Origin: a virus | Length of the DNA: 64,000 nt | Reading direction: 5' to 3' (one strand) | IMG/VR virus record: IMGVR_UViG_3300032893_000031 | Span: 1 to 64,000 of that record | Shown: piece by piece, positions 22,228 through 58,523 of the stretch | Layout of the letters: each line of letters begins with the position of its first letter | Position numbering within the stretch: position 1 is the first letter of the stretch | Made by a program: the position numbers and the translations under genes | Notes under the pieces: generated by a model | The model's database searches: none | The model's input: only the letters and a program-made list of their open reading frames with translations | Told to the model about the DNA's origin: nothing

Positions 22228-23691
22228 TCACGAGCAGGTTATCGTGTCCGCTGAACTACTGCATCTCACAAAAAGCCACATTCTGCCGAATTGCGGGAAA
22301 ATCGGACGGACCGCATGGCGGTAGAACGCGAAATGGCGGCCAAGCTTGTGCGTCGGATCAGCCACACCCGCGCAGGAGGCAAATCCCAAGAGGGCATCGT
22401 TGCCGGTGATGAAGTCCCACTCGCCGAAATAATTCTGCGGGTGCCACTTCATGCCGGGAGCGGCGTTGATGGGCTTGAGCACTTCCTCGGTGCAAACCCA
22501 CGGATGGAGCGAGATCGCGGCCTCGTAGGTGGCGATGGTCGGGTCAACCCAGGATGGATTGATGATGGCGGCCAGCCCCTTGGTCACGTCGTTGCTGTTG
22601 TTGCTATTGGCCCACACCGGGATGCGGACGTAGGTATTGCCGCCGTAGGCGACCTGGTAGGTGGTCCACGTCGCGCTGGAAACGTTGTTGGTCCAGGCGA
22701 GAGTGGCCAGAGCGCCGGCGATGGTGACGGCGACCGAGATCAGCACGTTGCCCGCGCTGTCCTTGGCAACGTTAACAGTATCGCCGTTCTTGGTCAGAGC
22801 CCAGCGGGGCGGGAAGGGCGTGATGATGTGCCGGAAGTTCTTGATCACCCGGCTAGCGCCCATGCGCTGAATGACGGGGTTGGTGTCGCCCCAGCCCTGG
22901 AAGGACTGGTTCAAGTCGCTGCGAAACTCGCTGTTATTGAGCAGGATGTCGCGGCTGGTTTCCAACCCGATGAGCAGCGGGAAGATCGGGCCGTCGGGTC
23001 CGAGAGTCAGCCACCCCTGGGTGTTTGGGTCGTAAGCGCCTTCCTGAATCAATGCCGAGGCGCCGGAATCGAGCATTTCCTGGGTGAGTTGCGAGGTTGG
23101 AGTGTTGGCCGCGCCCAAGGCCGACAGGTCGGGGCCGGTCGGGTTGGTGCTGTTCGGGCCATAGACGTTCAGGTTGGGCTGACCCCAGTTCATGGCAGAA
23201 TTGCAGGCCATCTTGGGGACGAAGCGCATGTACCAGTTAGCCACGCGATTGGAGACCGAGCGGATGGAGCGCATCTCCATCGCCTTGAAATACTTCATCC
23301 AGAAGTCCTTCGAGTGCCAGTACATCACGAGGTCGTCCTGGCCGACGAGGGGGCCGACGAGCGGGAACCGCTCCGGCTTGTAGGTGTTTTCCTTGTGGCC
23401 GACGTTGACGGATTGGAAGTCCGTCGAGGCGTCCAGGGCGCCGTTGGGGTTGCCGCCGGAGATCGGCGCGATGTAGTTCCAGGGCTCCTCGTCCACATCA
23501 GCCTCGGAACGTTCGATGGTGAACACCGACCGGCCGTAGCCGGCGCCCTCGGGATAGGTCTCCTTCGGGACGATGTTCAGCCACGGGTCCATCCAGGAGC
23601 CGATGGTGTAAAGGGTTTCGCCAAGGTCTTCCACCTTGGCCCGCAAATCGTCAAAAGGTGTGCTGCAAGCTTGCTTGACAATGAAGGACAT
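22228..23691 (-). CDS. Major capsid protein candidate
   Basis: About 487 aa, the largest ORF directly downstream of the scaffold-like gene. Well-mixed globular composition. The start is uncertain (ATG 23691 or 23727). Confidence 0.55.
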   Translation of the reverse strand: MSFIVKQACSTPFDDLRAKVEDLGETLYTIGSWMDPWLNIVPKETYPEGAGYGRSVFTIERSEADVDEEPWNYIAPISGGNPNGALDASTDFQSVNVGHKENTYKPERFPLVGPLVGQDDLVMYWHSKDFWMKYFKAMEMRSIRSVSNRVANWYMRFVPKMACNSAMNWGQPNLNVYGPNSTNPTGPDLSALGAANTPTSQLTQEMLDSGASALIQEGAYDPNTQGWLTLGPDGPIFPLLIGLETSRDILLNNSEFRSDLNQSFQGWGDTNPVIQRMGASRVIKNFRHIITPFPPRWALTKNGDTVNVAKDSAGNVLISVAVTIAGALATLAWTNNVSSATWTTYQVAYGGNTYVRIPVWANSNNSNDVTKGLAAIINPSWVDPTIATYEAAISLHPWVCTEEVLKPINAAPGMKWHPQNYFGEWDFITGNDALLGFASCAGVADPTHKLGRHFAFYRHAVRPIFPQFGRMWLFVRCSSSADTITCS

Positions 23692-23956
23692 TCCAAGCGC
23701 AGCTAGGAGAAGTATCAAAATGTGCATAACTAAATCAGCGTGCTGTGTTGTTGTTCGGATTCGCCTTGGCCCACATAGGCGCAAGGGCATACCGAGTGCG
23801 TTATTGGAACTCCCTGTTTGAAGTCGGCCGGGCTGCCGCTGCCGTGCGTCCGAACTATCGGCGTTTATTGACGCTTAGACCATTGATGTCTGTTCTGGTC
23901 CCGAACAGTGAAAAACCTAAAACCCGAGCAAGAGGCAAGTCAACAGAAAACTTAAT

Positions 23957-24376
23957 CTATTTTTTGCGGGGAGTAAGTGGCACCCAGAACAAGCCGAACG
24001 CCGCAACCGAAGCGCAGAGGAAAACCGCTGTTTCTGGTGTGGCGTTGATGTGTAGCGGCACCCAAATGACAGCGGAAAACACGATGGTCGCCACCACCAT
24101 TGAGGCTTTTGCGAGCGGCCTTCTGAGGGATATGGCGATGATGAGGTTGCCGATGCCAAACAGGCACTTGATGGGGGCGAACCCCACAGCCAAGTCCCAA
24201 GTGGAGGCCATAATCACCACCGCCACAGCGTTAATTGCGAGCATCCCGGGCCAGCCCCACATTTTCATCAGGCGGTTGGATTCCAAGCGCAAGTCTGGCG
24301 AAGCAACGAGGGTGCCCCAGAGGTCCACCAAAGAGGCAGCAACGACTAAGGCGATCTGAGTGAAAAGGTGATTCAC
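23957..24376 (-). CDS. Small multi-pass membrane protein (DUF5658-like) between the scaffold and capsid genes
   Basis: GTG 24376. IALVVAASLVDLWGTLVASPDLRLESNRLM, followed by 3 more hydrophobic helices. Confidence 0.5.
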   Translation of the reverse strand: MNHLFTQIALVVAASLVDLWGTLVASPDLRLESNRLMKMWGWPGMLAINAVAVVIMASTWDLAVGFAPIKCLFGIGNLIIAISLRRPLAKASMVVATIVFSAVIWVPLHINATPETAVFLCASVAAFGLFWVPLTPRKK

Positions 24377-24417
24377 AAACGAAAACGCCCGCTGGGGAAC
24401 CGAAACCCCAGCGGGCG
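24377..24417 (-). terminator. Rho-independent terminator after the scaffold gene
   Basis: CGCCCGCTGGGG (24386-24397) pairs perfectly with CCCCAGCGGGCG (24406-24417). On the minus strand it is followed by TTTTCGTTT. Confidence 0.75.
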
Positions 24418-24431
24418 CTGCGGGCAGGCGG

Positions 24432-25706
24432 TCAGGAGGCCGGAGAGGTAAGCCGGTGGATAAAGCCATCCCGAACCTGGCTGGGGGGTGTCCCGGGTTT
24501 GACGGGTGGTGGTTTGCCAGACCCGCCACCTTCCCGGCCGCCACCGGCGGGCAATCCCGGGTTGGCGGCGGTCAGGCGGGCCACCTGTTCCTTGAGCGTC
24601 TGATTCTCTTTGAGCAGTCGCAACCCCTGTTCGAGCGCCACCGGGTAGGCAGCCGCCTGGAAACAGGCGGACATCAAGTCTTGCGGCTTCATCCCCTCGC
24701 CGGTGAAATACCGCTTGGCCAGCGCGATCCGCTCCGGCACAGCCTTGTTCCACTCAGCGGCGCCTTCCTCGGTGTCGGGGCGAAGCTGGAACATCGGATC
24801 GCCCTTTTCGGCCGCCTGACGGGCCTTGATGGCGTCGGCAAAGGCGGTTTCGGCCTGCTGGCGGGCCTGCTCGCGTTTGCCCTCCGCGGTGGTTGTCTCA
24901 GCGGCTTGGCGTTCCTTGGCAGCCGCAACCTCTTTTTCGAGGGTTTCAGAGCGTTCCTGCGAGATGGCCTCCAGCGAATTCAGGACGGAGCCGAACCGGC
25001 TGGATTGGAGCGGGCTCAGGTCGGCAATCAGTTCCTCGATCTGCTGCGATTTGTAGGGCGAATCCGGCAGGGCCAGCACTTTGGCCGCCTGTTCAGCCTT
25101 GTCGGCGCCGACGATGTTCTTGGCTAGCGTCACCTGGGCATTGACCTTGTTGTCGAAGTACGCCTTGAACCTCGGGTGCTCGGCGACATTCAGCCGGCGG
25201 ATGGTCTCCGTCAGTTGCTCGATCTCCTGGTTGGCGGCTTCAAGCGCAGCTTTCTCGGCCTTGCTGGTGCCCTCGGCGGCAGTCTCGGCGGCTTTGCGGG
25301 CTTCGGCAAGCTGGGTTTCGAGGGTTTTGACCCTGCCATCATATTCGGCGAGCTTCGGCTCGTATTCGGCCTTGATGCCAGCCTTGGCTTCCGCCCACTC
25401 CTTGGCGCTGCGCGGTGGCTGTTTATCGAAGTCCCGGGCGGCAGGTGTGGGGGGTGTGGCTGGCTTCGGGGGTGTGACGGGTGCCGCGGTGGGCGGTGTC
25501 GCGGGCGGCTCTGCCGGCGGGGCTGGTGGAGGCGGCTCGGCGGGGGGCGTCTTTGGCTGTGCGGGTGGCGTGGTGGGTGCCGCTGGGGTGATATTACGGT
25601 CCATCCAACTGCTGATGATGTCGCGCGTGCTACCGGCGCCAGCGGGCGGGGCGGCGGCAGGAGCTTCGGCGGGGGCCAATACTTTGGTCAGGTGATTGTG
25701 TAACAT
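24432..25706 (-). CDS. Scaffolding-protein candidate (Pro-rich N-terminus, long coiled coil)
   Basis: PAxP-rich first 90 aa, then A/E/K/Q-rich helical sequence. Lies directly upstream of the capsid candidate. Confidence 0.5.
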   Translation of the reverse strand: MLHNHLTKVLAPAEAPAAAPPAGAGSTRDIISSWMDRNITPAAPTTPPAQPKTPPAEPPPPAPPAEPPATPPTAAPVTPPKPATPPTPAARDFDKQPPRSAKEWAEAKAGIKAEYEPKLAEYDGRVKTLETQLAEARKAAETAAEGTSKAEKAALEAANQEIEQLTETIRRLNVAEHPRFKAYFDNKVNAQVTLAKNIVGADKAEQAAKVLALPDSPYKSQQIEELIADLSPLQSSRFGSVLNSLEAISQERSETLEKEVAAAKERQAAETTTAEGKREQARQQAETAFADAIKARQAAEKGDPMFQLRPDTEEGAAEWNKAVPERIALAKRYFTGEGMKPQDLMSACFQAAAYPVALEQGLRLLKENQTLKEQVARLTAANPGLPAGGGREGGGSGKPPPVKPGTPPSQVRDGFIHRLTSPAS

Positions 25707-25710
25707 AAGA

Positions 25711-25977
25711 TTACTCAGCGGGTTCGTAGGTTGCGGCGAAAATGTCGGGCTTGCAGGGGTAGAATTCGCCCTTCACCCCCCTAATGATCCAATCGTTTGG
25801 AATGGCCAGCATTTCGCCCTCCATTGTTCTGATGGCGAGCGCACCGCCGGGGGCTTCTGTGACAATCGAGTTTCCCTCTGGCGGCATGTTTTGATGCGCC
25901 CAAGCGATAATGTCGATCTGGTTTCCGTTCAACTGAACGGCCTCAATAACGACTGGTTTCTTTCGGAATTTTGGCAT
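25711..25977 (-). CDS. Small conserved phage protein (PGDYG-like C-terminus)
   Basis: IPNDWIIRGVKGEFYPCKPDIFAATYE resembles the PGDYG-domain pattern. Confidence 0.45.
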   Translation of the reverse strand: MPKFRKKPVVIEAVQLNGNQIDIIAWAHQNMPPEGNSIVTEAPGGALAIRTMEGEMLAIPNDWIIRGVKGEFYPCKPDIFAATYEPAE

Positions 25978-25980
25978 AAC

Positions 25981-26454
25981 TCAGGGTAGTTTGTGGACTA
26001 ACGTGGCTGGTTGCGGCCGTGGTTTATTTTTGGGATCTGGCAGGAAATCGGTTTCCATCGGCTCGAACGTCTCGGCGGTCTCCGGCTTGTCGGCGACATA
26101 CACGCCAAGAAGCTGGAAATCGGCCAGTGCGTTGGAGTAGCCCTCGCATTGGGCTTGAAGGATAGCGCGGGTTTGCAAGTCGGGAAAGCTGTCGAGCGAG
26201 AAGTTGCCTTGGTGGGTGTTGCGCAAGGCATCGAGCATCATCTTGGTTTCGGGCGCAGCCAACACCTGCTGGGCCTTCTTCACCATGTCGGGGATTCTAC
26301 GCCATTCCTGCACGCGCATGGAGCAGGCATCCCGGTATTCCACCCGGATCTCAACCGGCTGTGGCGGGGACTTGCGGAACAACACTTTTAATTTTCTAAG
26401 CAACTCACGCACTTTAAGCCTCCTTATCGGGTTCTGGCAATACCTTAGCCTCAA
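25981..26454 (-). CDS. Hypothetical protein
   Basis: 157-aa ORF. An alternative GTG start at 26412 lies one nt after the upstream stop. Confidence 0.5.
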   Translation of the reverse strand: MRLRYCQNPIRRLKVRELLRKLKVLFRKSPPQPVEIRVEYRDACSMRVQEWRRIPDMVKKAQQVLAAPETKMMLDALRNTHQGNFSLDSFPDLQTRAILQAQCEGYSNALADFQLLGVYVADKPETAETFEPMETDFLPDPKNKPRPQPATLVHKLP

Positions 26455-26770
26455 CCGTCACCTTGCCTTCCTGGGTGATGACGCGGAACTCCCCAATGAT
26501 TTGCTCGTCCCGCATGAGGCGGCTGAAATTGGGATGTTCCTCAAGGCGGATTTTGTTGGTCCTGAGATAGTGCTGCAACCGGCGGCGGTCCTTTACCTTT
26601 TTGCTGTCGGCGAGGTTGAACACATGCGGGGGCAGGGCGTGGAACATCGCCTTGCGCAGCCAATGGCCTTTGGCGGACTGAATGGCTTGGGCCTTCTCTT
26701 GCAGGCGTTTCTCGAATTCGGACGGCAGACGGTTGAAGCCATCTCGGTTGAAAACAAAGCGTGCGCTCAT
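26414..26770 (-). CDS. Hypothetical protein
   Basis: Starts MSARFVFNRDG, with an ATGA overlap to the methyltransferase gene. Confidence 0.5.
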   Translation of the reverse strand: MSARFVFNRDGFNRLPSEFEKRLQEKAQAIQSAKGHWLRKAMFHALPPHVFNLADSKKVKDRRRLQHYLRTNKIRLEEHPNFSRLMRDEQIIGEFRVITQEGKVTVEAKVLPEPDKEA

Positions 26771-27366
26771 CCCTCTGTTCCCTCCATCCCGCCGATAATC
26801 GTTCGGGGCTTTGCTCGTTGCGGCGGCCATACCGGCTTCACCGGCGGCGGGACAATCTTCTCCGCGACCAGCGCAAACGAGTAGGCGTTGCCCGGGAACG
26901 GCCAAAGCTCGAAGATGACTTTGGCCTCGCGCGGGAGTTTGGCTTTCACGAATTCGAGCGAGAAGTCGGGATGCTTGTGCGCCCGGTTGGGTTCCCCGCC
27001 GTAAACCCGGCAATGTTCAAGGTAGGCTTTCTGGTCGGGCAGGAACATGACGAGCTTGCCGCCGATCTTGAGCACCCTCAGCCACTCGCGGAGAATCAAG
27101 GTGGTGTCGGTGAAATCCTCGAGTACGTGTGAACTGTAGCAGAAATCCAACGACTCATTCCTGAACCACACCAGATTGGCGGCGTCCCCGATCAGGTTGG
27201 TCGGCCATTCGTTGTCCTCGATTCGGCGGTGTGGGTGCCCGGGTGCTCGGTCGAGCGTCATCGCCCAGTCCACGATTGGCTGGCCACCGCCGAAGCCTAA
27301 ATCCACGCCTGTCCCCGTACAGAACGGGGCCAGCTTTTCCCTTGCCGATTCGGTTTCTGTGCTCAT
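26767..27366 (-). CDS. Class I SAM-dependent methyltransferase
   Basis: GVDLGFGGG (motif I), LDFCYSSHVLEDF and REWLRVLKIGGKLVMFLPD (Methyltransf_11/25-like). Confidence 0.75.
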   Translation of the reverse strand: MSTETESAREKLAPFCTGTGVDLGFGGGQPIVDWAMTLDRAPGHPHRRIEDNEWPTNLIGDAANLVWFRNESLDFCYSSHVLEDFTDTTLILREWLRVLKIGGKLVMFLPDQKAYLEHCRVYGGEPNRAHKHPDFSLEFVKAKLPREAKVIFELWPFPGNAYSFALVAEKIVPPPVKPVWPPQRAKPRTIIGGMEGTEG

Positions 27367-28034
27367 AAGACAGTTAGTTCCATCCCGGTTTCATCTATCA
27401 GGTAATCATACCCGATCTGGTTGAAGTGATTGGTGGGGTCAAGCTGTTTGTATTTGTCCACGCGGGCCTGACGCAGTTCGGGCGTGCTCATGCCGTAGTG
27501 AAGAAGCTGGCACTCGGTCTCCATCGTTTTGCCGTGGGGCAGGCATTGGGCGTGCAGTCTGGCCGTGGCGTTGCCCTGCCAGTGAACGAATCCGCCCAGG
27601 AGCGGGTTGCGATGGACAACCACCTTGCGCTTGCGCCCCCAGATGCCGTCCGAGCGGTATTGAAGCGGGTTGGCCGACCAAACCTCGCGCACGCGATAGC
27701 TGATAAGGTCGCAGCCCTTGTGAACGGCAACTTCAATTTGCTGATGCAGCCCATCGCGGGTGATTGATGGTTCGAGCAATTCGTCATCGTCCAAGAGCAA
27801 TACCCAATCGCAGCCGTGCGCGGCGGCGCGGGCCAGGAGCGTCAGGTGGTTGGTCCAGTCGTTCCATTCCTCGTTCTTGCGAGCCAGCCGAGCAATTTCA
27901 TCCGGCAACCCGCTGGACCATTCCACGTTGTCGGCCAGGACGATGACGGCATCGCACAGGGCGACAAGCTGGTTCAGGCTGCCGAAGTCCGGCTTGCTCT
28001 CGCGGCCAATGGGCATGAGTCCAGCAATCTTCAT
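27363..28034 (-). CDS. Glycosyltransferase, GT2-like (GT-A fold)
   Basis: MKIAGLMPIG...CDAVIVLADN...WVLLLDDDELLEP (DxD-type acidic motif). Confidence 0.5.
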   Translation of the reverse strand: MKIAGLMPIGRESKPDFGSLNQLVALCDAVIVLADNVEWSSGLPDEIARLARKNEEWNDWTNHLTLLARAAAHGCDWVLLLDDDELLEPSITRDGLHQQIEVAVHKGCDLISYRVREVWSANPLQYRSDGIWGRKRKVVVHRNPLLGGFVHWQGNATARLHAQCLPHGKTMETECQLLHYGMSTPELRQARVDKYKQLDPTNHFNQIGYDYLIDETGMELTVL

Positions 28035-28684
28035 GGCTTCACCTTTTGGTAGTCGTAGGGCGTATCCCGCCATGTCCCCTCGTAATAATGGGCCGCGCAA
28101 GTCTCAGGAAACCGCTGCGTCGGTGGTTCACCGCGGAAGGGGAAGAACGGGAAGAACACCCTCGGGTTCTCGACGAGCGGGAATTTCGGCTCAAACCGCT
28201 GGTATTCGCGGCTGAGAAAGCCCGTGCTCAGCCGGTGAGTCATTGTCTCTCGATGGTGCGTCTCATACGACTCGGGCGCGTGTTCGATGACGGCCTTGAT
28301 GAACGGGTGACGAGGCACCGCGGCGAGAATTGTATCGGCAATCCAGCCGGGGATGTGCTCGTCCTCACGGGCGAGCATGATGTCCCGGCCCTCAAGGTGC
28401 TGCTCGATGTTCCTGAAACACTCGAAATCGCAATGCAGATAAACCCCGCCGTAGATGTAAAGAAGTTCGTACTGCAGGAGCAAAAACTTGGCATCGGTTT
28501 CCGGCGCGGCGTCGAACAGTTTTTGGTTGATCAGCGGGTAGGGCAGATTGTCGGCGTTCCAGAAATACACCTGCCAGCCGTTGTGATGGCGAAGCCACGA
28601 CACCATGTACTCGGCGAACCTCGGCGGGAATAGCCTTGGCCCAAGGCCAAGCCAGCACCAGTGAAATATCTTCGGGATTCTCAC
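28031..28684 (-). CDS. Glycosyltransferase, GT32-like (OCH1 / capsular sugar transferase type)
   Basis: IPKIFHWCWLG and FLLLQYELLYIYGGVYLHCDFEC match the Gly_transf_sug pattern. GTGA overlap upstream. Confidence 0.7.
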   Translation of the reverse strand: MRIPKIFHWCWLGLGPRLFPPRFAEYMVSWLRHHNGWQVYFWNADNLPYPLINQKLFDAAPETDAKFLLLQYELLYIYGGVYLHCDFECFRNIEQHLEGRDIMLAREDEHIPGWIADTILAAVPRHPFIKAVIEHAPESYETHHRETMTHRLSTGFLSREYQRFEPKFPLVENPRVFFPFFPFRGEPPTQRFPETCAAHYYEGTWRDTPYDYQKVKP

Positions 28685-29589
28685 AGCAACTCCATCACCG
28701 CATTTCTCCACTCGCGGGCGTAGCGGGAGATTCCAAACCGCGCAACGGCATCCTGCCTGGCCCAATAGGCTATGCCCGCCCCAAAGTCATGGTCGGACAG
28801 CACGCGGCGAACGCCGGCAAACCAGTCCTGCTCCGAGGTTGCGACGTAGGCGTTCCATTCGTGGATGAACAGGTCGGCCATGTTCTCCGACTGGAAGGTG
28901 ACAATCGGCAGCCCCACCAGCATGGCCTCGATGGTGCTCATCGTCACCAGCCGCGAGGGGTTCAGGTAGGCCCGATGCGAGCGGTAGATGCTCAGCAGGT
29001 CAGTGAATGATTGCGGCTTAATGCGGTGGTAAGGCTGGGCGGGCACATTGTTGCCATCCCCGCAGAGGGTAATCTGATTCGACAGGTCGGACGGCATGTC
29101 CAGAATCAGCTTTGCCCCCTTCTCCAACCGCGCGGGCAGGTTGTAGCCGACCATCAAAGCGCGATCCCCGCAGTAGCGATTCCAACCGCTCCACAGGTCC
29201 ACATCAAAGCCGTGCTCGATGACGCGGGCCAGCGTGTCGGGCATCTGCCAGCGGCGGCGGGCCTCAACTGAGTGAAACACATAGCGGTCCACCAGCGGGC
29301 GCCAATCTCTGCCGGGGATGACGGCGGGCCGCATCACGCACTCCATGAAGATCAGGGGTAGGCGGTAGATTTTGAAGGCTTCCAAGGATTGCTCGTTGGT
29401 TGCAATGGCCACATCCCAATCGCGTTCCTCGACATCCTCGGGCGTCAAGACCGAGAGATTGGCCGGCTTGGGGCGGGTCGTTTCATCCCACCAACCGCCG
29501 AGGTTGTCCCCGACAATCGCCATGCGGTCGAACACCTGGCAGAGATTGAATATCTCCCCGCCGTGATGGGCTGCGATGAGGGCTTTCAT
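28681..29589 (-). CDS. Glycosyltransferase, GT-B fold (GT4/GT1-like)
   Basis: C-terminal STIEAMLVGLPIVTFQSENMADLFIHEWNAYV resembles the E-x7-E region. Confidence 0.6.
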   Translation of the reverse strand: MKALIAAHHGGEIFNLCQVFDRMAIVGDNLGGWWDETTRPKPANLSVLTPEDVEERDWDVAIATNEQSLEAFKIYRLPLIFMECVMRPAVIPGRDWRPLVDRYVFHSVEARRRWQMPDTLARVIEHGFDVDLWSGWNRYCGDRALMVGYNLPARLEKGAKLILDMPSDLSNQITLCGDGNNVPAQPYHRIKPQSFTDLLSIYRSHRAYLNPSRLVTMSTIEAMLVGLPIVTFQSENMADLFIHEWNAYVATSEQDWFAGVRRVLSDHDFGAGIAYWARQDAVARFGISRYAREWRNAVMELL

Positions 29590-30284
29590 GGGCGGACATG
29601 GGCCAGCCAAGCGCCCCAACCATTCAGGGCGGCGGTCTGCCGGCCGTGAAAGCCGAATTGACCCGTATAGACAACGTTCTCAGCCGAGAAGCGTCTGGCA
29701 ATACTCTCGGGCGCGAACCGCATCCCCTCACGTTCGAGCCAAGGTCGGATGCTCCGGCATATCCATCGGTCGCTGCTGGCCAATCCGGGGTCGTTCTTAT
29801 GTTCATACGCGGCATCGGATACCAACTCGCAGAACTTGCGGCTTCTGAGGGAGAAACCGCCGTTCCCGACATTGTTAGCCTCCGTGCATGGCGGCCATCC
29901 CGAATCGTGATGATCGCACCAGGGGGCACCGATGTAGGAGTATTTCAGCCAGCCGTCATCCCATGCGTCGGGATTCAGCACCGCCGAGTCCCACTCTTGT
30001 AGGAGAAGATGGCTCGTCCTCACATGCTTGTGCAGTTCGGTGAGGATGCTCCACTCGTAGCCAAGCGTAGTCGCGTGCGAGCCTGGGATGTTCTGGAAAT
30101 GCTTATCGTCGTGCGAGTGCCGAACAATCTGCAACCCCGGCGGCGGCTTGGGCACCGGCTGGTCGGTGAGCAGCTTGGCCTCGGCAAACTTCACCCACTT
30201 CATGCTTTGGGCCATCACGTCAGCCGTGCGTTGCGGCTTGAACGTGTCAATCGAGATCAGGGTGACTTGGGGGAGATGAAGCAT
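29586..30284 (-). CDS. DUF5672-like putative glycosyltransferase
   Basis: EWDSAVLNPDAWDDGWLKYSYIGAPW...VGNGGFSLRSRKF. Confidence 0.55.
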   Translation of the reverse strand: MLHLPQVTLISIDTFKPQRTADVMAQSMKWVKFAEAKLLTDQPVPKPPPGLQIVRHSHDDKHFQNIPGSHATTLGYEWSILTELHKHVRTSHLLLQEWDSAVLNPDAWDDGWLKYSYIGAPWCDHHDSGWPPCTEANNVGNGGFSLRSRKFCELVSDAAYEHKNDPGLASSDRWICRSIRPWLEREGMRFAPESIARRFSAENVVYTGQFGFHGRQTAALNGWGAWLAHVRP

Positions 30285-30286
30285 GG

Positions 30287-31057
30287 TTATGGCTGCGGTT
30301 CAAGGCACAGCCTCCGCATTTTGCCGCCGAGGCTTTCGCGGCTTTGTTTCCAAATCGTTTCCATCTTCTGCTTGGCCTTCCCCCAACAGTGGACGGTAGC
30401 CATCTTCACGGGCTGCTCGTAGCGAAACCAGTAGGGGATGCCGTCGGCAAACACGATGTCCCGGTGGCCCTCGAATTGGGAGGCTCCGGGGAGCATCAGG
30501 TAAAGCGAGTGGCAGATGTTCCATTCGTGAAACCAGCCCTCAAGCATCGGCTGGCCCAACCGCTCAAGCTGCGGGTTAATCACGTTGCCATCCGAAACCA
30601 TGCGCGGGTCTTGCGATGCCTGAACCTCGCGGCGGGCCTTGAAAACCTCCATGTAATAGTCGGCAATCACGCGGGCACCCTCGCGGGTGATGAACCGCGC
30701 CCCGGTCGGTCGGGCAGTCGCCAGCGTCAGTTTCGAGCGCACCTGCTCGAGTACCGGCGACAGATTGGCGAACAGCAGAACGTCGCTGTCCATGACGAAC
30801 ACCAACTCTTTGCCGTTCTTCTCCATCCAGTCAGCCAGCAGGAACCATTGCTCGAAACACCATCGCTCGAACGGCAACCCGTTGTTGCTGGTGTGCCGGT
30901 AATGCTTGCGGAACTCGTCAACGGCGGCGCAGGGAAACTCGTCAACGACAGCCACGCCATGCCCGGTCGCAGCCGCCGATTCAATGGCCCATTTCATGCC
31001 GGGGAATGATTTACCGAACGTGCGCGTGCTTTGCATGATGACGACTTCGACGCTCAT
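30287..31057 (-). CDS. Putative nucleotide-sugar transferase (DxD-containing)
   Basis: ELVFVMDSDVLLFANL, with an ATGA overlap upstream. Confidence 0.4.
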   Translation of the reverse strand: MSVEVVIMQSTRTFGKSFPGMKWAIESAAATGHGVAVVDEFPCAAVDEFRKHYRHTSNNGLPFERWCFEQWFLLADWMEKNGKELVFVMDSDVLLFANLSPVLEQVRSKLTLATARPTGARFITREGARVIADYYMEVFKARREVQASQDPRMVSDGNVINPQLERLGQPMLEGWFHEWNICHSLYLMLPGASQFEGHRDIVFADGIPYWFRYEQPVKMATVHCWGKAKQKMETIWKQSRESLGGKMRRLCLEPQP

Positions 31058-31725
31058 ACAGGAAGTGGGATGCCGAGGCAGCGGCACTCCTGCACAATGA
31101 AGTCCAGGGCGGCTTTATCCTTGATGCCGTGAATGGCGCGGGCGCCGTGTTGCAGGGCGTCCAGCAACAAGCCGGCGGTGGGTGAGAATAATGGCTGAAT
31201 TGTGCCCTCGCCATATCCTGGGGGCGAGAAGGGCAACACCGGCACACCCGCAACCTGACAGATAGCGGCCATGAAGCGGTCTCCCGCCCCTTCCTCCATT
31301 ATCGTGGGATAGCGGTCGGTGATTTCCAGCAGGCGCAACACGCTGGCGCGGTCCACCGTCCAGGGCACCAGCGGGTAGCGGGGCGCCATGAATCGTGAGG
31401 GTTCGGTGTTCGGCATGAGCACCCCCGTCAGCCCGTTGGGAAACTCAATGCGCTTTTGCAGCAGCAGCGAGTCATACTCGAAGATCGCCGCGTGCGAATG
31501 CCCGCTTTTGGCAAACCAATGCAGGACCGCCTTAATCTTGTTGATGGCATCAGCCCCGGAGTGGCAGCTTGGCCCGTAGGTGAATTGCTGGTGCCGGGTC
31601 TCAACTGGGGCATCCGAGGATTGGGCAACCACGACAGGCAGGCCGTGCCATTCCCAAAACGGCAGGTGCCGGTCAAAGGTTTCCTGCGCGGCCTTGTGCG
31701 GGAGGATGATGACGATGGGGTTCAT
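31054..31725 (-). CDS. Hypothetical protein of the glycosylation island
   Basis: Starts MNPIVIILPHK, with ATGA overlaps on both sides. Confidence 0.45.
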   Translation of the reverse strand: MNPIVIILPHKAAQETFDRHLPFWEWHGLPVVVAQSSDAPVETRHQQFTYGPSCHSGADAINKIKAVLHWFAKSGHSHAAIFEYDSLLLQKRIEFPNGLTGVLMPNTEPSRFMAPRYPLVPWTVDRASVLRLLEITDRYPTIMEEGAGDRFMAAICQVAGVPVLPFSPPGYGEGTIQPLFSPTAGLLLDALQHGARAIHGIKDKAALDFIVQECRCLGIPLPV

Positions 31726-33260
31726 GGTAGCCACTCCTCAAATTGCTCAATCGGGTCGTCCTGATTCATAAAGGTCTCGCGCTCGAACATGCAGTCCCGG
31801 CCGCCGTGCCAGCTTTCCTGATACACCCGCTGGCCCATTGCCAGGGCGAGCGAGCAGGGAAAGCTCTGGTTCGCGGCTACGGCCTTCCCGCCGGCAATCA
31901 CCCGCGCCATTTCAAGAAAGTCGTAAACCCGATAGTAGGACACCCTCCCGAATTGCCGAACAAACTCCCGGTATTCATCTTCCAACCCGACGAAAAGCAT
32001 TTCCCGCCCGTATCGCTTCACCAGCTCGCGCCACGGGAAGTCCTTGGCCTGATAGCGAAAGCTGCGGTGAACGATGATCTTGCCCGTCCAAATCGGCTCG
32101 CCAGCCTCCAGCCACGGTTCATCCTGTTTCATCAGGTGGCGCACGCCCGCGGCGTAACAGTGCATCTCGCAGAGGTTGTGAATGCGCTCGTTCTGGCGCA
32201 GCGTCCAGTTGTTCCAATGGTCGCGGAACTTATTCAGGTCATACTGGACGGCCTTGCCGGGATACTTCGGAGTAAATGACACCGAGCGCAGATACCGCTG
32301 AGCCTCCAACAGCGGGAGCGCCATGTCGAATTGCTCGCGGGTGATGGGCACCATGCAAGGCATCGTCCCGTTTTGCTGCGGGCCGAGGACGAGTTCACCC
32401 CCGCCGTGCAGCTTGATGGCGTACAGCCCGTAGATGATGTCCCCGAGGTTGCCGGAATGGTAGTAGGATGACCCCCGCCGGAGCAGGGCTCGCACGGGCT
32501 TAATCATCATCGCCCGAACCGCTTGCAGGAAGTTGGGGTCGAACGCATACGAAACGGTGTTGCGCTTCTCGCGCAGGCGGGTGATCAGGGTGTCATCTTT
32601 ACAGGCATGGAAGATCACAGCCCGCTTATCAATCCGGCGAACATCGGCCTGACTTGGAAAAGTCCATGTTTCATTCGTCACCCGGTTGCCGCGCTCATGG
32701 TGCATTAGGTGGGTTGGATGCGTGTGCCGCAACGTCATGTGCGGGCGCGTGCAATCCCACGGAAGCTGCTCGGCGACTAGAATGTAGTGGTTGTACTTGG
32801 CGATGTCTGGTGGGTAGATCGCGCAACCGGTCAGGTGGTTCTCCTTTTTGGTCGCGCTCATCCACGGATAGATGACGCCCATGAATGGCTTCTTCGCCCA
32901 ATAATACTCGGTCTCCAAAGCCGTCAGCCAGCCGGGAGAAAGTGGCACGCAATCGGGCTCGCACCAGTAAAACGCTTCGTCATAATTCTCTTTGACGTAA
33001 ATCGCCGCCACCCGAAACAGCTTGTTGCACGCCCTCGGCCAGCCGCCTTCCTCGACGCGGGTCTGCTTGATGGCCGTCACCCGCCCGAACGTCTGCTTGG
33101 CAATGCGCGTGGCCTCGTCAATTTCCTCCTGCGGGACTTGCGAGGAAGCGACGAGCAGCGCCTTGTGCTGCGGCATCTTTGGGTCAAGCTCGACGATCCA
33201 CCGTAGAAGCTCTTGGGCTTGGTGGAAATCTTTGTGACAAAAGGCGATGACTACGAGCAA
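31722..33260 (-). CDS. Two-domain putative glycosyltransferase (the C-terminal half is GT9/heptosyltransferase-like)
   Basis: 512 aa. YYHSGNLGDIIYGLYAIKLHGGGELVLG resembles the GT9 N-terminal GD motif. The N-terminal half resembles GT-A-type LPS transferases. Confidence 0.45.
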   Translation of the reverse strand: MLVVIAFCHKDFHQAQELLRWIVELDPKMPQHKALLVASSQVPQEEIDEATRIAKQTFGRVTAIKQTRVEEGGWPRACNKLFRVAAIYVKENYDEAFYWCEPDCVPLSPGWLTALETEYYWAKKPFMGVIYPWMSATKKENHLTGCAIYPPDIAKYNHYILVAEQLPWDCTRPHMTLRHTHPTHLMHHERGNRVTNETWTFPSQADVRRIDKRAVIFHACKDDTLITRLREKRNTVSYAFDPNFLQAVRAMMIKPVRALLRRGSSYYHSGNLGDIIYGLYAIKLHGGGELVLGPQQNGTMPCMVPITREQFDMALPLLEAQRYLRSVSFTPKYPGKAVQYDLNKFRDHWNNWTLRQNERIHNLCEMHCYAAGVRHLMKQDEPWLEAGEPIWTGKIIVHRSFRYQAKDFPWRELVKRYGREMLFVGLEDEYREFVRQFGRVSYYRVYDFLEMARVIAGGKAVAANQSFPCSLALAMGQRVYQESWHGGRDCMFERETFMNQDDPIEQFEEWLP

Positions 33261-33487
33261 GGACGCTCCCCTTTCTGCTCAGCAATCGAAACATCAAACA
33301 TCCACCCGCGATGTCGCATCAGCTCGTCCATCGTGAGGTCGCGGTCTATCGCGCCCGGAAAGTAATCGCGCACCGCGTCTGCGATCCGCTTCCTGTCCAA
33401 GTCGTATTGCTTCATCAGTTCCGGGGTGACCGGATTGCCCTTGAAAGACTTCACCCGATAGGTGCGTTGCTCAAAGGCGACGATCAT
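33251..33487 (-). CDS. Small hypothetical protein
   Basis: Starts MIVAFEQRTY, with an ATGA overlap upstream. Confidence 0.45.
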   Translation of the reverse strand: MIVAFEQRTYRVKSFKGNPVTPELMKQYDLDRKRIADAVRDYFPGAIDRDLTMDELMRHRGWMFDVSIAEQKGERPCS

Positions 33488-33708
33488 AATCCAATCGCCT
33501 TTCGGTACGCCGCAATTTCCTGCTCCGTCCACGGCCTCAACCCCGCTTCCTTGAGCGAGAGCGACGGATGCGAAATCCCCATGTCCTTGGCCACCGCCGT
33601 CAGCTTGAAGTTGGCCTTCTCACGAAGCTGTTTGAGTTCCGCCCCGGTGCTCACGCGGTCTATCGCGCGGCCAGTGCCTTTGCAGGCGGGACAGGGTTTA
33701 TCTGACAT
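33484..33708 (-). CDS. Small HTH DNA-binding protein with an N-terminal CxxC (first gene of the island operon)
   Basis: CPACKGTG, then GAELKQLREKANFKLTAVAKDMGISHPSLSLKE (HTH-like). Confidence 0.55.
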   Translation of the reverse strand: MSDKPCPACKGTGRAIDRVSTGAELKQLREKANFKLTAVAKDMGISHPSLSLKEAGLRPWTEQEIAAYRKAIGL

Positions 33709-33744
33709 AGACCAAGCGTTACGCTATTGTAACGCCTGAGTCAA
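33709..33744 (-). promoter_or_regulatory. Promoter/operator candidate for the island operon
   Basis: Perfect inverted repeat GCGTTAC-N6-GTAACGC (33716-33735) lies 8 nt upstream of the ATG. TTGACT on the minus strand (33739-33744) is preceded by an A-rich tract. Confidence 0.45.
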
Positions 33745-33762
33745 CGGCTTTTTGAAGATTTT

Positions 33763-34029
33763 TTACGGCCAGGTTTGGCCGAAGGGACGACGGCGGCTGG
33801 CCTGAGTGCGGGACTTCGCGCTGCGGGCGGGCTGGCGGGGTGCCTTGCCGTGAGAGTGGGACATGGGGGCTGGTCCGTGCTTGGCCCCGGCGTGCTGGCT
33901 GACGGGGCGGCGCGGCCACGGAAGATTCCAGGCCCCAAACGTTTTCCTGGCAAGTGTGTCCGCCTGTCGGTCAATGCTTGCTTGGTTTTGCGCGGTGACG
34001 GCTCGATCTTTCTCGTTTTGGTCATTCAT
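33763..34029 (-). CDS. Possible small basic protein
   Basis: 88-aa ORF whose ATG overlaps the HNH-AP2 stop (ATGA). The product is R/P/A-rich and low in complexity. Confidence 0.3.
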   Translation of the reverse strand: MNDQNEKDRAVTAQNQASIDRQADTLARKTFGAWNLPWPRRPVSQHAGAKHGPAPMSHSHGKAPRQPARSAKSRTQASRRRPFGQTWP

Positions 34030-34520
34030 ATCAATCCCATTTGCTGATTCGTTCTGGCAAATTCACCAAAGTAGGCTAATGCCGCTGCGTCATAAGCGCG
34101 AGCGGCATCTTTAGGAGATACGAATCTTCCAAGGTAGAACATTCGGTCCCCTCTGGAAATCTGAGCCTCCCATTTGCCAGACCGGAATCGCACCCCCTTA
34201 TATCCAGACGCGTTATTTTTGTGCAGGGCCATGTTCCCGTTGTTTTGAACATAATCGCAACGCCGGAGGTTGCTCCGCTGATTGTTCAATCCGTTGCCAT
34301 CCTTATGATCACACCGCTCTCCTCGTTGGAGGCCGAGAATTACACGGTGCATGTCTATGTTCCCTACCCTCCTGGGGTTTTCTGGCCCACGTTGTTTGCG
34401 GCGGCAGGCGTAGAACGTGTTCCAAGATGGCCTGGCGCACCAGCTCCATTGGATTAGCCATTCATAATCTTCGTCATCAACTAAGGCGACCAAGCCTCTC
34501 GTTAGTGGAATCTCTTTCAT
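34026..34520 (-). CDS. HNH homing endonuclease with an AP2 DNA-binding domain
   Basis: CDHKDGNGLNNQRSNLR (HNH_3) and SGYKGVRFRSGKWEAQI...YLGRFVSPKDAARAYDAAALAYFGEFA (AP2). Confidence 0.85.
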   Translation of the reverse strand: MKEIPLTRGLVALVDDEDYEWLIQWSWCARPSWNTFYACRRKQRGPENPRRVGNIDMHRVILGLQRGERCDHKDGNGLNNQRSNLRRCDYVQNNGNMALHKNNASGYKGVRFRSGKWEAQISRGDRMFYLGRFVSPKDAARAYDAAALAYFGEFARTNQQMGLI

Positions 34521-34671: not shown

Positions 34672-36012
34672 TCATTCTCCATTGCCAGCAAGGACTTCCT
34701 CTGGCTCCGGCACTTCGGTATCGGTGAAATTGATGCCCGTTTCCTCAGCCTCGTTGATTTCCGCCACTAAATCGCGCACGGCATCCAGCGAGATTTCCAC
34801 CGGCTGGCCCTTGAGCATGTCCGCGACTTCCATCAGGTGGTCGGCGGCCTCCTGCACGGTGTTGCCGACGCCGTTGATGGAGCCGATGCAGGCGGTGTGG
34901 AAGTGGTTGCGCGGGAAATGCAGGACATCGCCCGCCAGCATGGCCTCGCGAGGGTTCAGCCACGGCCAGAGCTTGTCCTCCACGCGGATGGAGCGCCAAT
35001 CGCGGAAGCCATCGGCATGGTCCATCAGGCATTCGATGACAACTTTGCAGGCGGGTTCGATTTCAATGCTTTCGCCCGCACCGGCGGCGTAAAGGAGTTG
35101 CGGAAGATTGCCGTAAGCCTGTAGCTGGCAGGAGCCGGATGGGAACCCCAACCGGGTGGTGATGTCGGTAAGGACGTTTTCGGTTTTGGTCTTGCGCTGC
35201 TCGGTGCTGAGGAAATTGCTGTAGCGGTATTTGGCGAGCGTCGGCAAGAGCGGTTCGAGGACCGAAGTGATTTGCGGGTCAAGGTCGGCATACGGACGGA
35301 TGAACGAGCAGTAGGCTTGGTTCTTTTTTTCGACTCCGATGAGCGCATGGGATGGCGCTTGGCCGTTGACGATGAGGAAGTCCCCGCCATCTTCGATGTC
35401 GGTCTTGATCTCGTCCTCGACCATGAAATCAATGAGTTCCTTGAACGGCCCGAATTTCACCGCCAGCTTGTCGAGCAGCCCGTTGTCTTGCTCCCATGAC
35501 CGCCATTTTCGAGTCTCAAAATCCGCTCTCCAGCGGTCAATCTTCAAGAACTTATTCTCCAACGGAGCAAGGTGCTGCGTCAGCCGGGAGATGCCTTTGA
35601 TCGTGATGTATTCCGGCACGTCCATCCCGAGCTTGGATTGCAGTTTGCGGAAGCGGCTGCGATAGAGTTCAAGTTCCTGGCCTTCCTTGGAGCCAACAAC
35701 CCGGTGCCCGAGGGATTCGAGGTAAACCTGTGCGCCGATGTGGCCGGTGTCGGGGAAGACGAAGAGCGAGATTTCCTCGAACTTGTCTCCCCGGGCCATC
35801 CTCAACCAAAAGTCGTTGCAGCGGTGGATTCCAAGATCAGCAAAACCGTCACCCCATTGTTCCTCAACGCTCTGATGGTCCTCATCGAAGGGCGTGTGGT
35901 AGAGCACGCGGCCAAAGCCGTCGGGATTGATGGCCTGGGACAAGTGGAGGGCGAGATTGAAGAACAATCCACTGTCCACGATCAAAACCTTCTTGTCGCT
36001 CAGTTCGCTCAT
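34672..36012 (-). CDS. ATP-grasp-like enzyme (tentative)
   Basis: KKVLIVDSGLFFNLALHL (Rossmann-like pre-domain), KFLKIDRWRADFETRK and ENVLTDITTRLGFPSG (E-x-N-x-R-like). Confidence 0.35.
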   Translation of the reverse strand: MSELSDKKVLIVDSGLFFNLALHLSQAINPDGFGRVLYHTPFDEDHQSVEEQWGDGFADLGIHRCNDFWLRMARGDKFEEISLFVFPDTGHIGAQVYLESLGHRVVGSKEGQELELYRSRFRKLQSKLGMDVPEYITIKGISRLTQHLAPLENKFLKIDRWRADFETRKWRSWEQDNGLLDKLAVKFGPFKELIDFMVEDEIKTDIEDGGDFLIVNGQAPSHALIGVEKKNQAYCSFIRPYADLDPQITSVLEPLLPTLAKYRYSNFLSTEQRKTKTENVLTDITTRLGFPSGSCQLQAYGNLPQLLYAAGAGESIEIEPACKVVIECLMDHADGFRDWRSIRVEDKLWPWLNPREAMLAGDVLHFPRNHFHTACIGSINGVGNTVQEAADHLMEVADMLKGQPVEISLDAVRDLVAEINEAEETGINFTDTEVPEPEEVLAGNGE

Positions 36013-36341
36013 GCTGGTCCGTCGGTAAATCTTGGGCTGTTCCAAAGAGCAGCCGCATCCGTCGCGTTAGCAGCCTCGACCATCCGGCAACCGTATTGCC
36101 CGCACGCGATTGTCACGTCGCCGGTCACGCTGCTTCTCACGGGGTTGGCCTTCGCCCCACAACAAGGGCAGGTGCGCAAACGAATCTCCGTCGGCCACCA
36201 ATGGCCTTGCGCCTCGGCAGGGCGAGGGTCGGAGTATTCATGGACAAAATAGCGGTCGTAATCATCGGCGTAATGGCGCTGGGCGAATTCTTCTTTCAGG
36301 TCGTTAGCCGGGTTTGGATTCTGTTGGGTGATCGGGTTCAC
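36009..36341 (-). CDS. Lar-family restriction-alleviation-like zinc-ribbon protein
   Basis: CPCCGAKANPV...IACGQYGCRMVEAANATDAAALWNSPR. The start is uncertain (GTG 36341 or TTG 36356). Confidence 0.55.
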   Translation of the reverse strand: MNPITQQNPNPANDLKEEFAQRHYADDYDRYFVHEYSDPRPAEAQGHWWPTEIRLRTCPCCGAKANPVRSSVTGDVTIACGQYGCRMVEAANATDAAALWNSPRFTDGPA

Positions 36342-39617: not shown

Positions 39618-39821
39618 ATGATTCAGAATCTCGTCTGTTCCGTCCCACGCAAGAAAGTCCTGCCGAAAGTTCCACACGCACACGTCCAGCAACACCCGTT
39701 GCATGACAGCGCGTTTTTGCTCTACCCGATTGAGAAGCACCAGTTCGTGGTGGACCCGATGGATGATTACAGATGCAAGCGTTGCCACCGGCCAAGGTGC
39801 CTTCACCTGACGCCTGATTAA
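39618..39821 (+). CDS. Small opposite-strand ORF (67 aa, Cys/His-containing)
   Basis: By eye, third-position GC content is higher than in the competing minus-strand frame. Contains CKRCHRPRC. The 3' end overlaps the stop of the 2209-aa gene. Confidence 0.35.
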   Translation: MIQNLVCSVPRKKVLPKVPHAHVQQHPLHDSAFLLYPIEKHQFVVDPMDDYRCKRCHRPRCLHLTPD

Positions 39822-53758: not shown

Positions 53759-53778
53759 AGCGCATTGGCCATTCAGCG

Positions 53779-53807
53779 TTGCTATAAGCCAATGTTGGCC
53801 TTATTGT
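53779..53807 (+). promoter_or_regulatory. Sigma70-like promoter in the 75-bp divergent intergenic region
   Basis: TTGCTA (53779-53784), 17 nt, then TATTGT (53802-53807). About 26 nt upstream of ATG 53834. Confidence 0.4.
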
Positions 53808-53833
53808 CCAATAAAATCGCGTTACTGAAACGT

Positions 53834-56036: not shown

Positions 56037-56038
56037 GC

Positions 56039-58467: not shown

Positions 58468-58489
58468 AACACTTATTGCATAATAGGTG

Positions 58490-58517: not shown

Positions 58518-58523
58518 TTTTTC

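Follow-up and report, generated by a model that had tools for sequence, protein, structure and literature searches.

Why should a phage keep a row of glycosyltransferase genes among the genes that build its head? This question is raised by positions 33708 to 26414, minus strand, of a 64,000-nucleotide stretch of viral DNA (positions 1 to 64,000 of the IMG/VR record IMGVR_UViG_3300032893_000031; hereafter the window). A first-pass annotation, made from the letters of the DNA, had described this block as a self-contained island of about ten tightly coupled genes for glycosyltransferases and a methyltransferase, inserted between portal and scaffold/capsid genes. In this study the block (hereafter the cassette) was analyzed through its gene chain, its enzymes and its counterparts in related phages. 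The results suggest that it is very probably a glycan-building cassette. Our preferred reading, to which we give a probability of about 0.5, is that the cassette serves to glycosylate and methylate a protein of the virion, late and in the cytoplasm.

Eleven coupled genes in the head operon

Our own listing of open reading frames (ORFs) was compared with the genes called publicly in this sequence (ENA record k141_1486713, 74,441 bp). Both agree on 11 minus-strand genes in an unbroken chain from 33708 to 26414, and the tight coupling through ATGA and GTGA junctions reported before was found again. Pfam matches were counted when above the curated (gathering) cut-offs. The genes, from 33708 downwards, are the following.

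33484-33708, minus: 74-residue XRE-type helix-turn-helix (HTH) protein with N-terminal CPACKGTG; HTH_31, 31.5 bits; PHROG transcriptional regulator/repressor families
33251-33487, minus: 78-residue ORF, function not assigned; ATGA-coupled to the HTH gene, no family match
31722-33260, minus: 512-residue two-domain glycosyltransferase; N-domain (residues 1-233) with predicted GT-A fold, domain X (residues 266-511) with predicted GT9-like GT-B fold
31054-31725, minus: 223-residue ORF (223a), candidate transferase; one homologue
30287-31057, minus: 256-residue ORF with a DSD motif, candidate transferase; two homologues
29586-30284, minus: 232-residue DUF5672 protein; Pfam PF18922, 63.4 bits
28681-29589, minus: 302-residue GT1/GT4-type GT-B glycosyltransferase; Glyco_trans_1_4 and Glyco_trans_1_2
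28031-28684, minus: 217-residue GT32-type glycosyltransferase; corrected GTG start overlapping the stop codon of the GT4-type gene
27363-28034, minus: second 223-residue ORF (223b) with a WVLLLDDDE motif, weak GT2-like candidate; homologue in the cassette of contig L023
26767-27366, minus: 199-residue class I S-adenosylmethionine (SAM)-dependent methyltransferase; Methyltransf_11; PHROG methyltransferase
26414-26770, minus: 118-residue ORF, function not assigned; ATGA-coupled to the methyltransferase gene, no family match

Eight of the junctions among these genes are 4-nt ATGA or GTGA overlaps, that between the GT4-type and GT32-type genes being a GTGA overlap at 28681-28684; one further junction is a 10-nt overlap and one a 2-nt gap. 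The coupling continues past 26414: a 143-residue gene, an 88-residue gene and a scaffold candidate follow after gaps of 1, 3 and 4 nt. The genes around the cassette are as follows.

36860-39091, minus: 743-residue portal candidate; 45-55% identical in most full-length matches of the lineage
34672-36012, minus: 446-residue ATP-grasp enzyme, upstream anchor of the slot that holds the cassette; in most relatives
34026-34520, minus: 164-residue HNH/AP2 homing endonuclease bordering the cassette on its upstream side; Pfam AP2, PHROG HNH endonuclease 4e-34
25981-26412, minus: 143-residue protein, downstream anchor of the slot; same-position homologues in all relatives reaching so far
25711-25977, minus: 88-residue gene linking the 143-residue gene to the scaffold candidate
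24432-25706, minus: 424-residue scaffold candidate, from its position and its Pro/Ala-rich, charged helical composition; conserved in relatives
22228-23691, minus: 487-residue major capsid protein, predicted HK97 fold closest to N4-type capsids (AlphaFold and Foldseek)

No terminator-like site was found on the coding strand from 33708 to 24432. The sole strong terminator-like hairpin on the minus strand lies at 24384-24419, just 3' of the scaffold candidate gene. The cassette can therefore not be called self-contained, since it is coupled through the 118-, 143- and 88-residue genes into the scaffold candidate with no terminator between.

The G+C content of the cassette and its G+C content at third codon positions (GC3) are the same as those of the portal-candidate and capsid genes. 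This fact suggests a resident block with no recent import. A recent horizontal insertion of an island was accordingly rejected, as GC3 equals that of the flanks, and no convincing direct or inverted repeats, which might mark a mobile island, were found flanking the cassette.

The cassette proteins were also checked for transmembrane segments. None was convincing, the highest 19-residue hydropathy being 1.74. Among the cassette genes we found no flippase, polymerase, ligase or polyprenyl-phosphate (lipid-carrier) transferase. It therefore seems that the acceptor of the glycan would lie in the cytoplasm or face it.

Enzymes of the cassette

The 512-residue protein showed no sequence match in Pfam, PHROG, NCBIfam or PDB (PDB also by profile). 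It has 51 homologues in metagenomes, and the family is well conserved, with many invariant residues. The AlphaFold model, calculated from a 36-sequence alignment, has a mean predicted local distance difference test score (pLDDT) of 92.8 and a disordered linker at residues 237-259. In Foldseek searches of the PDB, the N-domain matched GT8 3tzt, the Skp1 alpha-galactosyltransferase 6mw5, glycogenin and the glycosyltransferase domains of LH3 and COLGALT1, and domain X matched the GT9 GT-B enzymes 3tov, WaaC (2h1h) and the protein heptosyltransferase TibC (4rap). The Foldseek probability of the model against the GT-A and GT9 structures was 1.0 (E 3e-6 to 4e-5). The target-normalised template modelling score (TM-score) was 0.63 for the N-domain against 3tzt and 0.35-0.47 for domain X against 3tov, 2h1h and 4rap. 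Of the EPD motif of the N-domain, compared in 13 homologues, E101 and D103 do not vary and P102 is kept in the consensus. Domain X opens with HSGNLGD, which resembles the N-terminal GD motif of GT9.

The window protein showed no match to PF01075 (Glyco_transf_9), and in the homologues P0016, P0038 and P0046 this family forms a separate third domain outside domain X. By its modelled fold the protein is GT9-like, without membership of the GT9 family. The first-pass description of a two-domain GT9-like protein holds in this sense for the GT-A and GT9-like GT-B folds and fails for the family. Among the 51 homologues, the N-domain and domain X occur alone or fused with GH130, GT1/4, GT2, PF01075 and DUF5672 domains; DUF5672 is fused with domain X in L002 and P0032, and GH130 in P0027 and P0028. 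When the model was searched in BFVD with Foldseek, giant-virus glycosyltransferases ranked among the closest structures. One match, a protein annotated there as FkbM methyltransferase, has a stretch of about 240 residues with 28% identity, which is probably domain X.

Four other enzymes were matched by Pfam above the cut-offs, in agreement with the first-pass annotation, which had named a DUF5672-like protein, a GT4-like GT-B enzyme, a GT32-like enzyme and a class I SAM methyltransferase. In the 302-residue enzyme, PF13692 (Glyco_trans_1_4; 33.6 bits, cut-off 27) and PF13524 (Glyco_trans_1_2; 32.7 bits, cut-off 25) matched the C-terminal half only. The GT32-type protein gave 30.5 bits against Gly_transf_sug (cut-off 23) with the corrected start, the match running from residue 20. 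The public call for this gene (ATG at 28606) is too late, dropping the conserved N-terminus IPKIFHWCW covered by the Pfam match. Because both the match and this N-terminus require it, the GTG at 28684 was taken as the start. Where the DXD motif (GGxYxDxD in the family) is expected the protein reads GGVYLHCDFE, with a His in place of the first Asp. The methyltransferase gave 38.5 bits against PF08241 (cut-off 21.2), carries the SAM-binding motif I VDLGFGGG and has homologues in the cassettes of L002 and L016. A multi-enzyme glycosyltransferase/methyltransferase block inside the head module, as first proposed, is thus borne out by the Pfam and Foldseek identities.

The presence of a methyltransferase beside glycosyltransferases could also be read in terms of DNA hypermodification. 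Sugars would then be placed on modified phage bases, as in T-even phages or phages that glycosylate 5-hydroxymethylcytosine, to evade restriction. Phage enzymes that build mono- to oligosaccharides on 5-hydroxymethylcytosine are known, according to a preprint (bioRxiv 10.1101/2023.12.21.572611). Among the Pfam-annotated genes covering most of the window, however, there is no hydroxymethylase for deoxycytidine or deoxyuridine monophosphate (dCMP/dUMP), no TET/JBP dioxygenase and no C5 DNA methyltransferase; this search covered the window, about 10 kb of the 74-kb genome lying outside it. Moreover, the methyltransferase is of the small-molecule type Methyltransf_11, relatives carry TylF/CmcI-type sugar O-methyltransferases, and the block lies in the head module and not in the replication module. 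DNA as the acceptor is therefore highly improbable.

Three ORFs are harder to place. For 223a and the 256-residue ORF there was no match in Pfam, PHROG, NCBIfam or PDB, and none of their few homologues is annotated. The best Pfam match of 223b, PF13704, was sub-threshold (13.6 bits against a cut-off of 27.5, E 0.096) and covered the DDDE stretch; a PDB sequence search with this protein gave nothing significant. When the three were aligned by hhalign with the N-domain, domain X, GT2-like, GT_PLOD, DUF5672 and phage Corndog proteins, all probabilities were below 6%, with alignments too shallow for this to count as negative evidence. NCBIfam, run on 10 cassette and flanking proteins, gave weak methyltransferase matches only. 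The earlier calls of a GT2-like enzyme and a DxD transferase came from motifs and were not supported. At least five glycosyltransferase families had been counted; four well-supported glycosyltransferase-type domains, the DUF5672 protein and one weak GT2-like candidate are left of these.

These three ORFs, almost without homologues, and the HCD at the DXD position of the GT32-type protein would be in line with another explanation, in which the acceptor is a host protein, a phage protein outside the virion or a small molecule, or in which some genes are decayed passengers. Against this, the frames are intact and tightly coupled, GC3 is host-like throughout, and the 512-residue family is well conserved with many invariant residues. 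The retention of the cassette position in the head operon across the lineage, described below, points to a function tied to the virion. We consider such an acceptor, or decay, very unlikely.

The slot in relatives and the proposed acceptor

Relatives were collected from IMG/VR, JGI metagenomes and a protein-to-contig index, with the portal candidate and the 512-residue protein as probes. The longest contigs of the lineage are about 72-77 kb, and many contigs are apparently from soil. Occupancy of the slot was counted in non-redundant loci keeping the portal candidate plus the 143-residue or scaffold anchor, namely 18 relatives and the window. The slot was filled in all 18 and in the window. 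The distance from the portal candidate to the 143-residue gene was 3.1-13.4 kb, never shorter, and across the lineage the slot is bounded by the ATP-grasp gene and the 143-residue gene.

The content of the slot changes from relative to relative. Its commonest form is a trio of a GT2-like protein (weak Glyco_tranf_2_3 or Glyco_transf_7C matches), a Methyltransf_24 protein (TylF/CmcI-type sugar O-methyltransferase) and a GH130-like protein, no member of which is shared by the window cassette. L002 carries in addition the DUF5672-domain X fusion and a Methyltransf_11. L006 and L021 carry a protein with both N-domain and domain X, Methyltransf_23/Methyltransf_11-type and Methyltransf_24 methyltransferases (two or three methyltransferases each), GT_PLOD and paralogous unknowns; L055 and L061 have the slot filled with genes lacking a family assignment. 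Rather than an insertion particular to the window phage, the slot is a conserved and hypervariable part of the head operon. The word "inserted", used for the island at first, does not fit a block that equals its flanks in G+C and GC3, has no flanking repeats and occupies a slot filled in every relative keeping both anchors.

On the basis of these observations we propose the following course of events. The cassette would be transcribed and translated late, as a part of the head operon, each gene being coupled to the next as far as the scaffold gene. Its products would include at least four soluble glycosyltransferase domains (GT-A, GT9-like GT-B, GT4-type and GT32-type), the DUF5672 protein, up to three more candidate transferases and the SAM methyltransferase. 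From host nucleotide sugars and SAM these enzymes would build, step by step on a virion protein, a short methylated hetero-oligosaccharide. The likeliest acceptor would be the capsid protein or another head-surface protein, modified during or just after head assembly, and the outcome would be a glycan coat on the particle. Interchangeable cassettes in the slot would give different glycans on different relatives, and the HNH homing endonucleases beside domain-X genes may drive the exchange of cassettes.

We infer the acceptor, the glycan itself, the late timing and the HNH role in this scheme. A methylated oligosaccharide built stepwise on a virion protein is suggested by the co-expression with the scaffold gene, by the universal presence of the slot's content in the head operon, by its variation between relatives and by the sugar O-methyltransferases that relatives carry. 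A fixed position in the head operon together with varying content is as expected of a surface trait of the virion. Taken by itself, the proposal that the acceptor is the virion has in our view about an even chance of being correct.

It is worth noting that several points weigh against glycosylation of the virion. The target is deduced solely from gene position and analogy, and late expression solely from operon structure. Folds of the GT9, GT4, GT32 and GT2 types are equally typical of enzymes of the lipopolysaccharide (LPS) core and the cell wall, which act cytoplasmically without membrane spans. The three ORFs 223a, 256-residue and 223b are not confirmed as transferases, and the GT32-type enzyme may be impaired through its HCD. 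Finally, the cassette has no sequence homology to that of Corndog, a phage with comparable genes between portal and protease, and in an example from the F1 cluster the transferase genes lie near the genome end (PMC11256854); the position of such genes is therefore not diagnostic.

Some of these points lead to a second interpretation, in which the enzymes remodel the host envelope. The infected cell would then carry an altered LPS core or O-antigen, or altered capsule, teichoic acid or S-layer glycans; this could block superinfection or keep progeny from sticking to debris. The GT9-like, GT4, GT32 and GT2-like folds are classic LPS and cell-wall types, LPS core enzymes of the cytoplasmic face need no membrane span, and remodelling of the envelope is the usual reading of large cyanophage transferase sets (PMC12801897). 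The block, however, contains no flippase, bactoprenol transferase, membrane-spanning Gtr-type enzyme or O-acetyltransferase. It lies in the head operon, coupled to the scaffold gene and not beside an integrase or attachment site, and it holds the same structural position in every member of the lineage, in contrast to accessory conversion genes. Were expression late, as suggested by the structure of the operon, little time would be left to rebuild the envelope. Remodelling of the envelope is thus unlikely, though it deserves to be kept in mind. Both readings had been offered in the first-pass annotation; glycosylation of the virion fits better, and envelope remodelling fits less because of the missing membrane partners, the missing lysogeny context and the head-operon position.

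Further observations were made in the relatives. The GH130-like proteins (mannoside phosphorylase fold) always stand beside Methyltransf_24 (L002 17239-18372, L003 14188-15276, L028, L029, L030, L040, L045 and others). Since a phosphorylase fold here stands in a biosynthetic cassette, this suggests that the protein works as a transferase. HNH (AP2/HNH_3) genes lie directly beside the domain-X gene in L021 (9522-10004), L006 (11594-12205) and L023 (9460-10011) and near it in the window, and further HNH genes are scattered in the portal-to-scaffold region of L036, L037 and L049. This arrangement suggests that homing by HNH endonucleases helps to move cassettes.

Domain-X cassettes were also observed in unrelated phage contigs, at 10001-14949 of L034 (95 kb), 10001-15576 of L035 and 10001-14446 of L023. 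They combine domain X with methyltransferases (up to three in L034), further transferases or both, and DUF5672 is present in L023 and L034. In these two contigs baseplate or tail-fibre genes stand at most about 6 kb from the cassette. This family of modules is therefore widespread among environmental phages. A genome scan found domain-X relatives in metagenome-assembled genomes (MAGs) of Isosphaeraceae, Chitinophagaceae, other Bacteroidota, Ramlibacter and Azospirillum. Since none of these MAGs carries the portal or capsid of the window phage, they do not point to a host.

Neighbouring genes and known systems

The chain opens with the HTH gene, and two sequence features lie just upstream of it.

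33716-33735, unstranded: perfect palindrome GCGTTAC-N6-GTAACGC, 7 nt upstream of the HTH start codon; single occurrence in the window
33738-33743, minus: TTGACT hexamer with an A-rich stretch upstream, candidate -35

The HTH_31 match and the CPAC at residues 6-9 agree with the HTH/CxxC protein named at first. The cassette might be an independently regulated module, in which the HTH protein binds the palindrome and a dedicated promoter provides a switch separate from that of the head genes. An XRE-type HTH gene at the head of the chain, and a palindrome, a TTGACT and an A-rich stretch in the 317-nt uncalled gap just upstream, are what such a module would show, and the palindrome is a possible candidate for an operator or an RNA hairpin. 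On the other hand, perfect 7-N6-7 inverted repeats are at chance frequency in the window (3 observed against a mean of 5.1 in shuffles). No acceptable -10 hexamer was found 16-18 nt from the TTGACT, and the promoter scan reports no sigma-70-type site there on the minus strand. The fold z-score of the gap was -1.55, which is not notable.

The HTH and 78-residue pair is absent from all other cassettes compared, and the sole HTH homologue found is in L051, downstream of the scaffold gene. The HNH gene of L021, 49% identical to the window copy, abuts the 514-residue gene directly, so that in the window the pair looks like a separate small insertion. In addition, no terminator separates the cassette from the scaffold gene. 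These facts make a separately switched module quite improbable. The HTH protein may regulate something, but it is not a defining part of the cassette. The first-pass claim of an own regulator was not upheld; the palindrome and the TTGACT are both present, the former at chance frequency for its class and the latter without a -10 partner. An 88-residue ORF at 33763-34029 was rejected as a gene, being uncalled in the public record, with no family match and no homologue in the related loci searched.

The structural genes were analyzed mainly through the models. A blastn search with the cassette and tblastn searches with the portal and capsid candidates gave no match among GenBank phages, and PHROGs searches of the structural genes gave nothing apart from the HNH gene, so that the phage stands at a great distance from any annotated one. 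The 487-residue protein has 151 relatives in a full HMMER scan, and a 62-sequence alignment gave an AlphaFold model with a predicted TM-score (pTM) of 0.80. In Foldseek searches of the PDB, the capsids of N4, B2, Moo19 and DEV lead (E about 1e-9), followed by SPO1, P22 and Sf6 (E 1e-9 to 1e-7 for the N4, B2, Moo19, DEV, P22 and Sf6 capsids), and every one of the top 50 matches is a capsid or virion entry from a phage (E 1e-9 to 3e-6). A PDB sequence search with the capsid profile gave nothing significant. From its modelled fold the protein is an HK97-fold capsid protein. At residues 300-350 or so (window 22644-22794, minus strand) there is an insertion, about 50 residues long, with a high content of Ser, Thr and Asn and modelled with low confidence, which most of the 151 homologues lack. 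This insertion may form a loop or domain exposed on the surface and may be a candidate acceptor for the glycan.

For the 743-residue protein there was no match in Pfam, PHROGs, GenBank phages (tblastn) or PDB (single sequence or profile). We infer its portal identity from size, from position and from the fact that no gene of the lineage is better conserved, and the scaffold identity of the 424-residue protein likewise from position and composition. Of the flanks given at first as portal, scaffold and capsid, the capsid is thus supported by fold, and the other two are candidates.

The hairpin after the scaffold candidate (24384-24419, minus strand) has a 14-bp, GC-rich stem and a T-rich tail and directly follows the stop codon. 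A 740-nt gap (23692-24431) separates the scaffold candidate and capsid genes, in which the public record calls a hydrophobic 170-residue ORF without a homologue in the relatives. This hairpin may act as an attenuator and so set the ratio of scaffold to capsid.

The portal candidate is separated from the cassette by a 140-residue gene, the ATP-grasp gene and the HNH/AP2 endonuclease gene. An ATP-grasp profile from eight homologues matched PurD structures (2yw2, E 2.5e-4; 3lp8, E 3.9e-4). An ATP-dependent ligase is unusual in a head operon, and the enzyme might add an amino acid or an amide to the glycan or to a head protein. The HNH gene appears foreign because its GC3 is 0.54, against about 0.75 in its neighbours. 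At about 36009-36190 (minus strand) the C-terminal 57 residues of an uncalled ORF are 58% identical to L021 5404-5568 and match the Lar zinc-ribbon family weakly. Directly upstream of the ATP-grasp gene there is thus probably a small gene that has escaped annotation.

Two observations were made further away. Just upstream of the portal candidate is a 2209-residue ORF (39818-46447, minus strand) with no Pfam, PHROG or PDB sequence match. The N4-like capsid fold and a genome size near 74 kb allow the speculation that it is a giant virion-packaged protein, for example a polymerase. Tail-fibre-like genes on the plus strand (53114-60004), one with Laminin_G_3, stand between minus-strand late-gene blocks. 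This plus-strand block ends beside a small serine recombinase (Resolvase domain, about 220 residues) and recalls invertible tail-fibre segments; no convincing inverted repeats were found flanking it. A scan of the whole window against Rfam matched no family, and a tRNA scan found none.

What, then, would the cassette mean? To our knowledge, experiments have demonstrated phage-encoded glycosylation of the virion in no more than a few mycobacteriophages; there it shields the particles from antibodies. We suggest tentatively, and at somewhat less than even odds, that the present lineage of phages, of about 75 kb and with N4-like capsids, keeps in its head operon a glycan-coat locus, the counterpart of the bacterial O-antigen locus, in which cassettes are swapped. 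If this is true, related phages would wear different methylated capsid glycans, the HNH endonucleases would perhaps carry the cassettes, and virion glycosylation would be widespread and diversifying well beyond the actinobacteriophages. The N-domain and domain X appear to be previously undescribed transferase domains that recombine with GH130, GT2, GT4, GT9 and DUF5672 modules, so that two uncharacterised, widely shuffled transferase domains are defined. A genomic signature also emerges, consisting of soluble glycosyltransferases and methyltransferases between portal and scaffold/capsid genes, without membrane partners. The larger and highly variable cassette of an unrelated lineage, with a counterpart in every relative examined, suggests that glycan coats on phage particles are commoner and more diverse than recognised. 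The finding is to be taken as a lead, its function being deduced from the genes.

Among known systems, serotype-conversion cassettes of the gtrABC type resemble the window cassette in that phage-encoded glycosyltransferases change a surface glycan. They consist of a membrane flippase, a bactoprenol glucosyltransferase and a type-specific transferase, lie beside the integrase and the attachment (att) site and are expressed in lysogens. Their membrane proteins and their neighbourhood differ from the window, where the neighbours are head genes and the only recombinase is about 26 kb from the cassette. A gtr-type conversion cassette was rejected, as there are no membrane proteins. With the GT9 enzymes WaaC/WaaF and TibC, domain X has the GT-B fold in common (Foldseek). 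It differs from them in its length of only about 245 residues and in that the window protein lacks a PF01075 match.

In the chlorovirus PBCV-1, soluble multi-domain transferases build methylated capsid glycans, A064R combining two glycosyltransferase domains with one methyltransferase domain, and changes in these enzymes give antigenic variants (PMC9614988). Like the window phage, this virus encodes soluble glycosyltransferases and SAM methyltransferases (A064R, A061L, A111/114R, A075L), and its methylated oligosaccharide is placed on the major capsid protein in the cytoplasm, as is proposed for the window phage. Unlike the latter, PBCV-1 is a eukaryotic giant virus with a double-jelly-roll capsid, scattered early genes and N-linked glycans.

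The closest arrangement is that of Corndog. Its gene order is Phage_portal gp34, TylF/Methyltransf_24 O-methyltransferase gp35, gp36, GT2-like gp37, GT25-like gp38, prohead protease gp39 and capsid gp41. According to one article, phages of cluster O have an O-methyltransferase gene followed by three glycosyltransferase genes, by which the capsid and the tail tube are modified (PMC11600133, citing Freeman et al. 2023). Virion glycosylation is likewise mentioned there, and in a second article, for cluster F1 phages such as Che8 (PMC11600133, PMC11256854, citing Freeman et al. 2023). The place of the cassette inside the head module, which had first been thought unusual, is therefore not so, since Corndog has comparable genes between portal and prohead protease. 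A tblastn search with Corndog gp34-gp41 (gp40 omitted) against the window and 32 loci gave no match in the window and one weak gp35 match in L015. The resemblance appears to be convergent because no sequence homology is shared.

In both phages a methyltransferase and several soluble glycosyltransferases stand between the portal gene (in the window, the portal candidate) and the protease or capsid genes, and the gp35 family (Methyltransf_24/TylF) is common among the relatives of the window phage. The window phage differs in its N4-like HK97 capsid and its genome of about 74 kb, and its host need not be an actinobacterium. Its system is known here from genes alone. At about 7 kb (10.4 kb if the HNH and ATP-grasp genes are included), the window cassette exceeds the 2.8 kb of Corndog two- to fourfold. 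It employs a GT9-like domain, GT32, GT4, DUF5672 and Methyltransf_11 in place of TylF, and its content varies widely within the lineage. Glycosylation of phage virions as such is known; what is new here is an unrelated lineage with a larger, modular and lineage-variable cassette, made in part of domains not described before.

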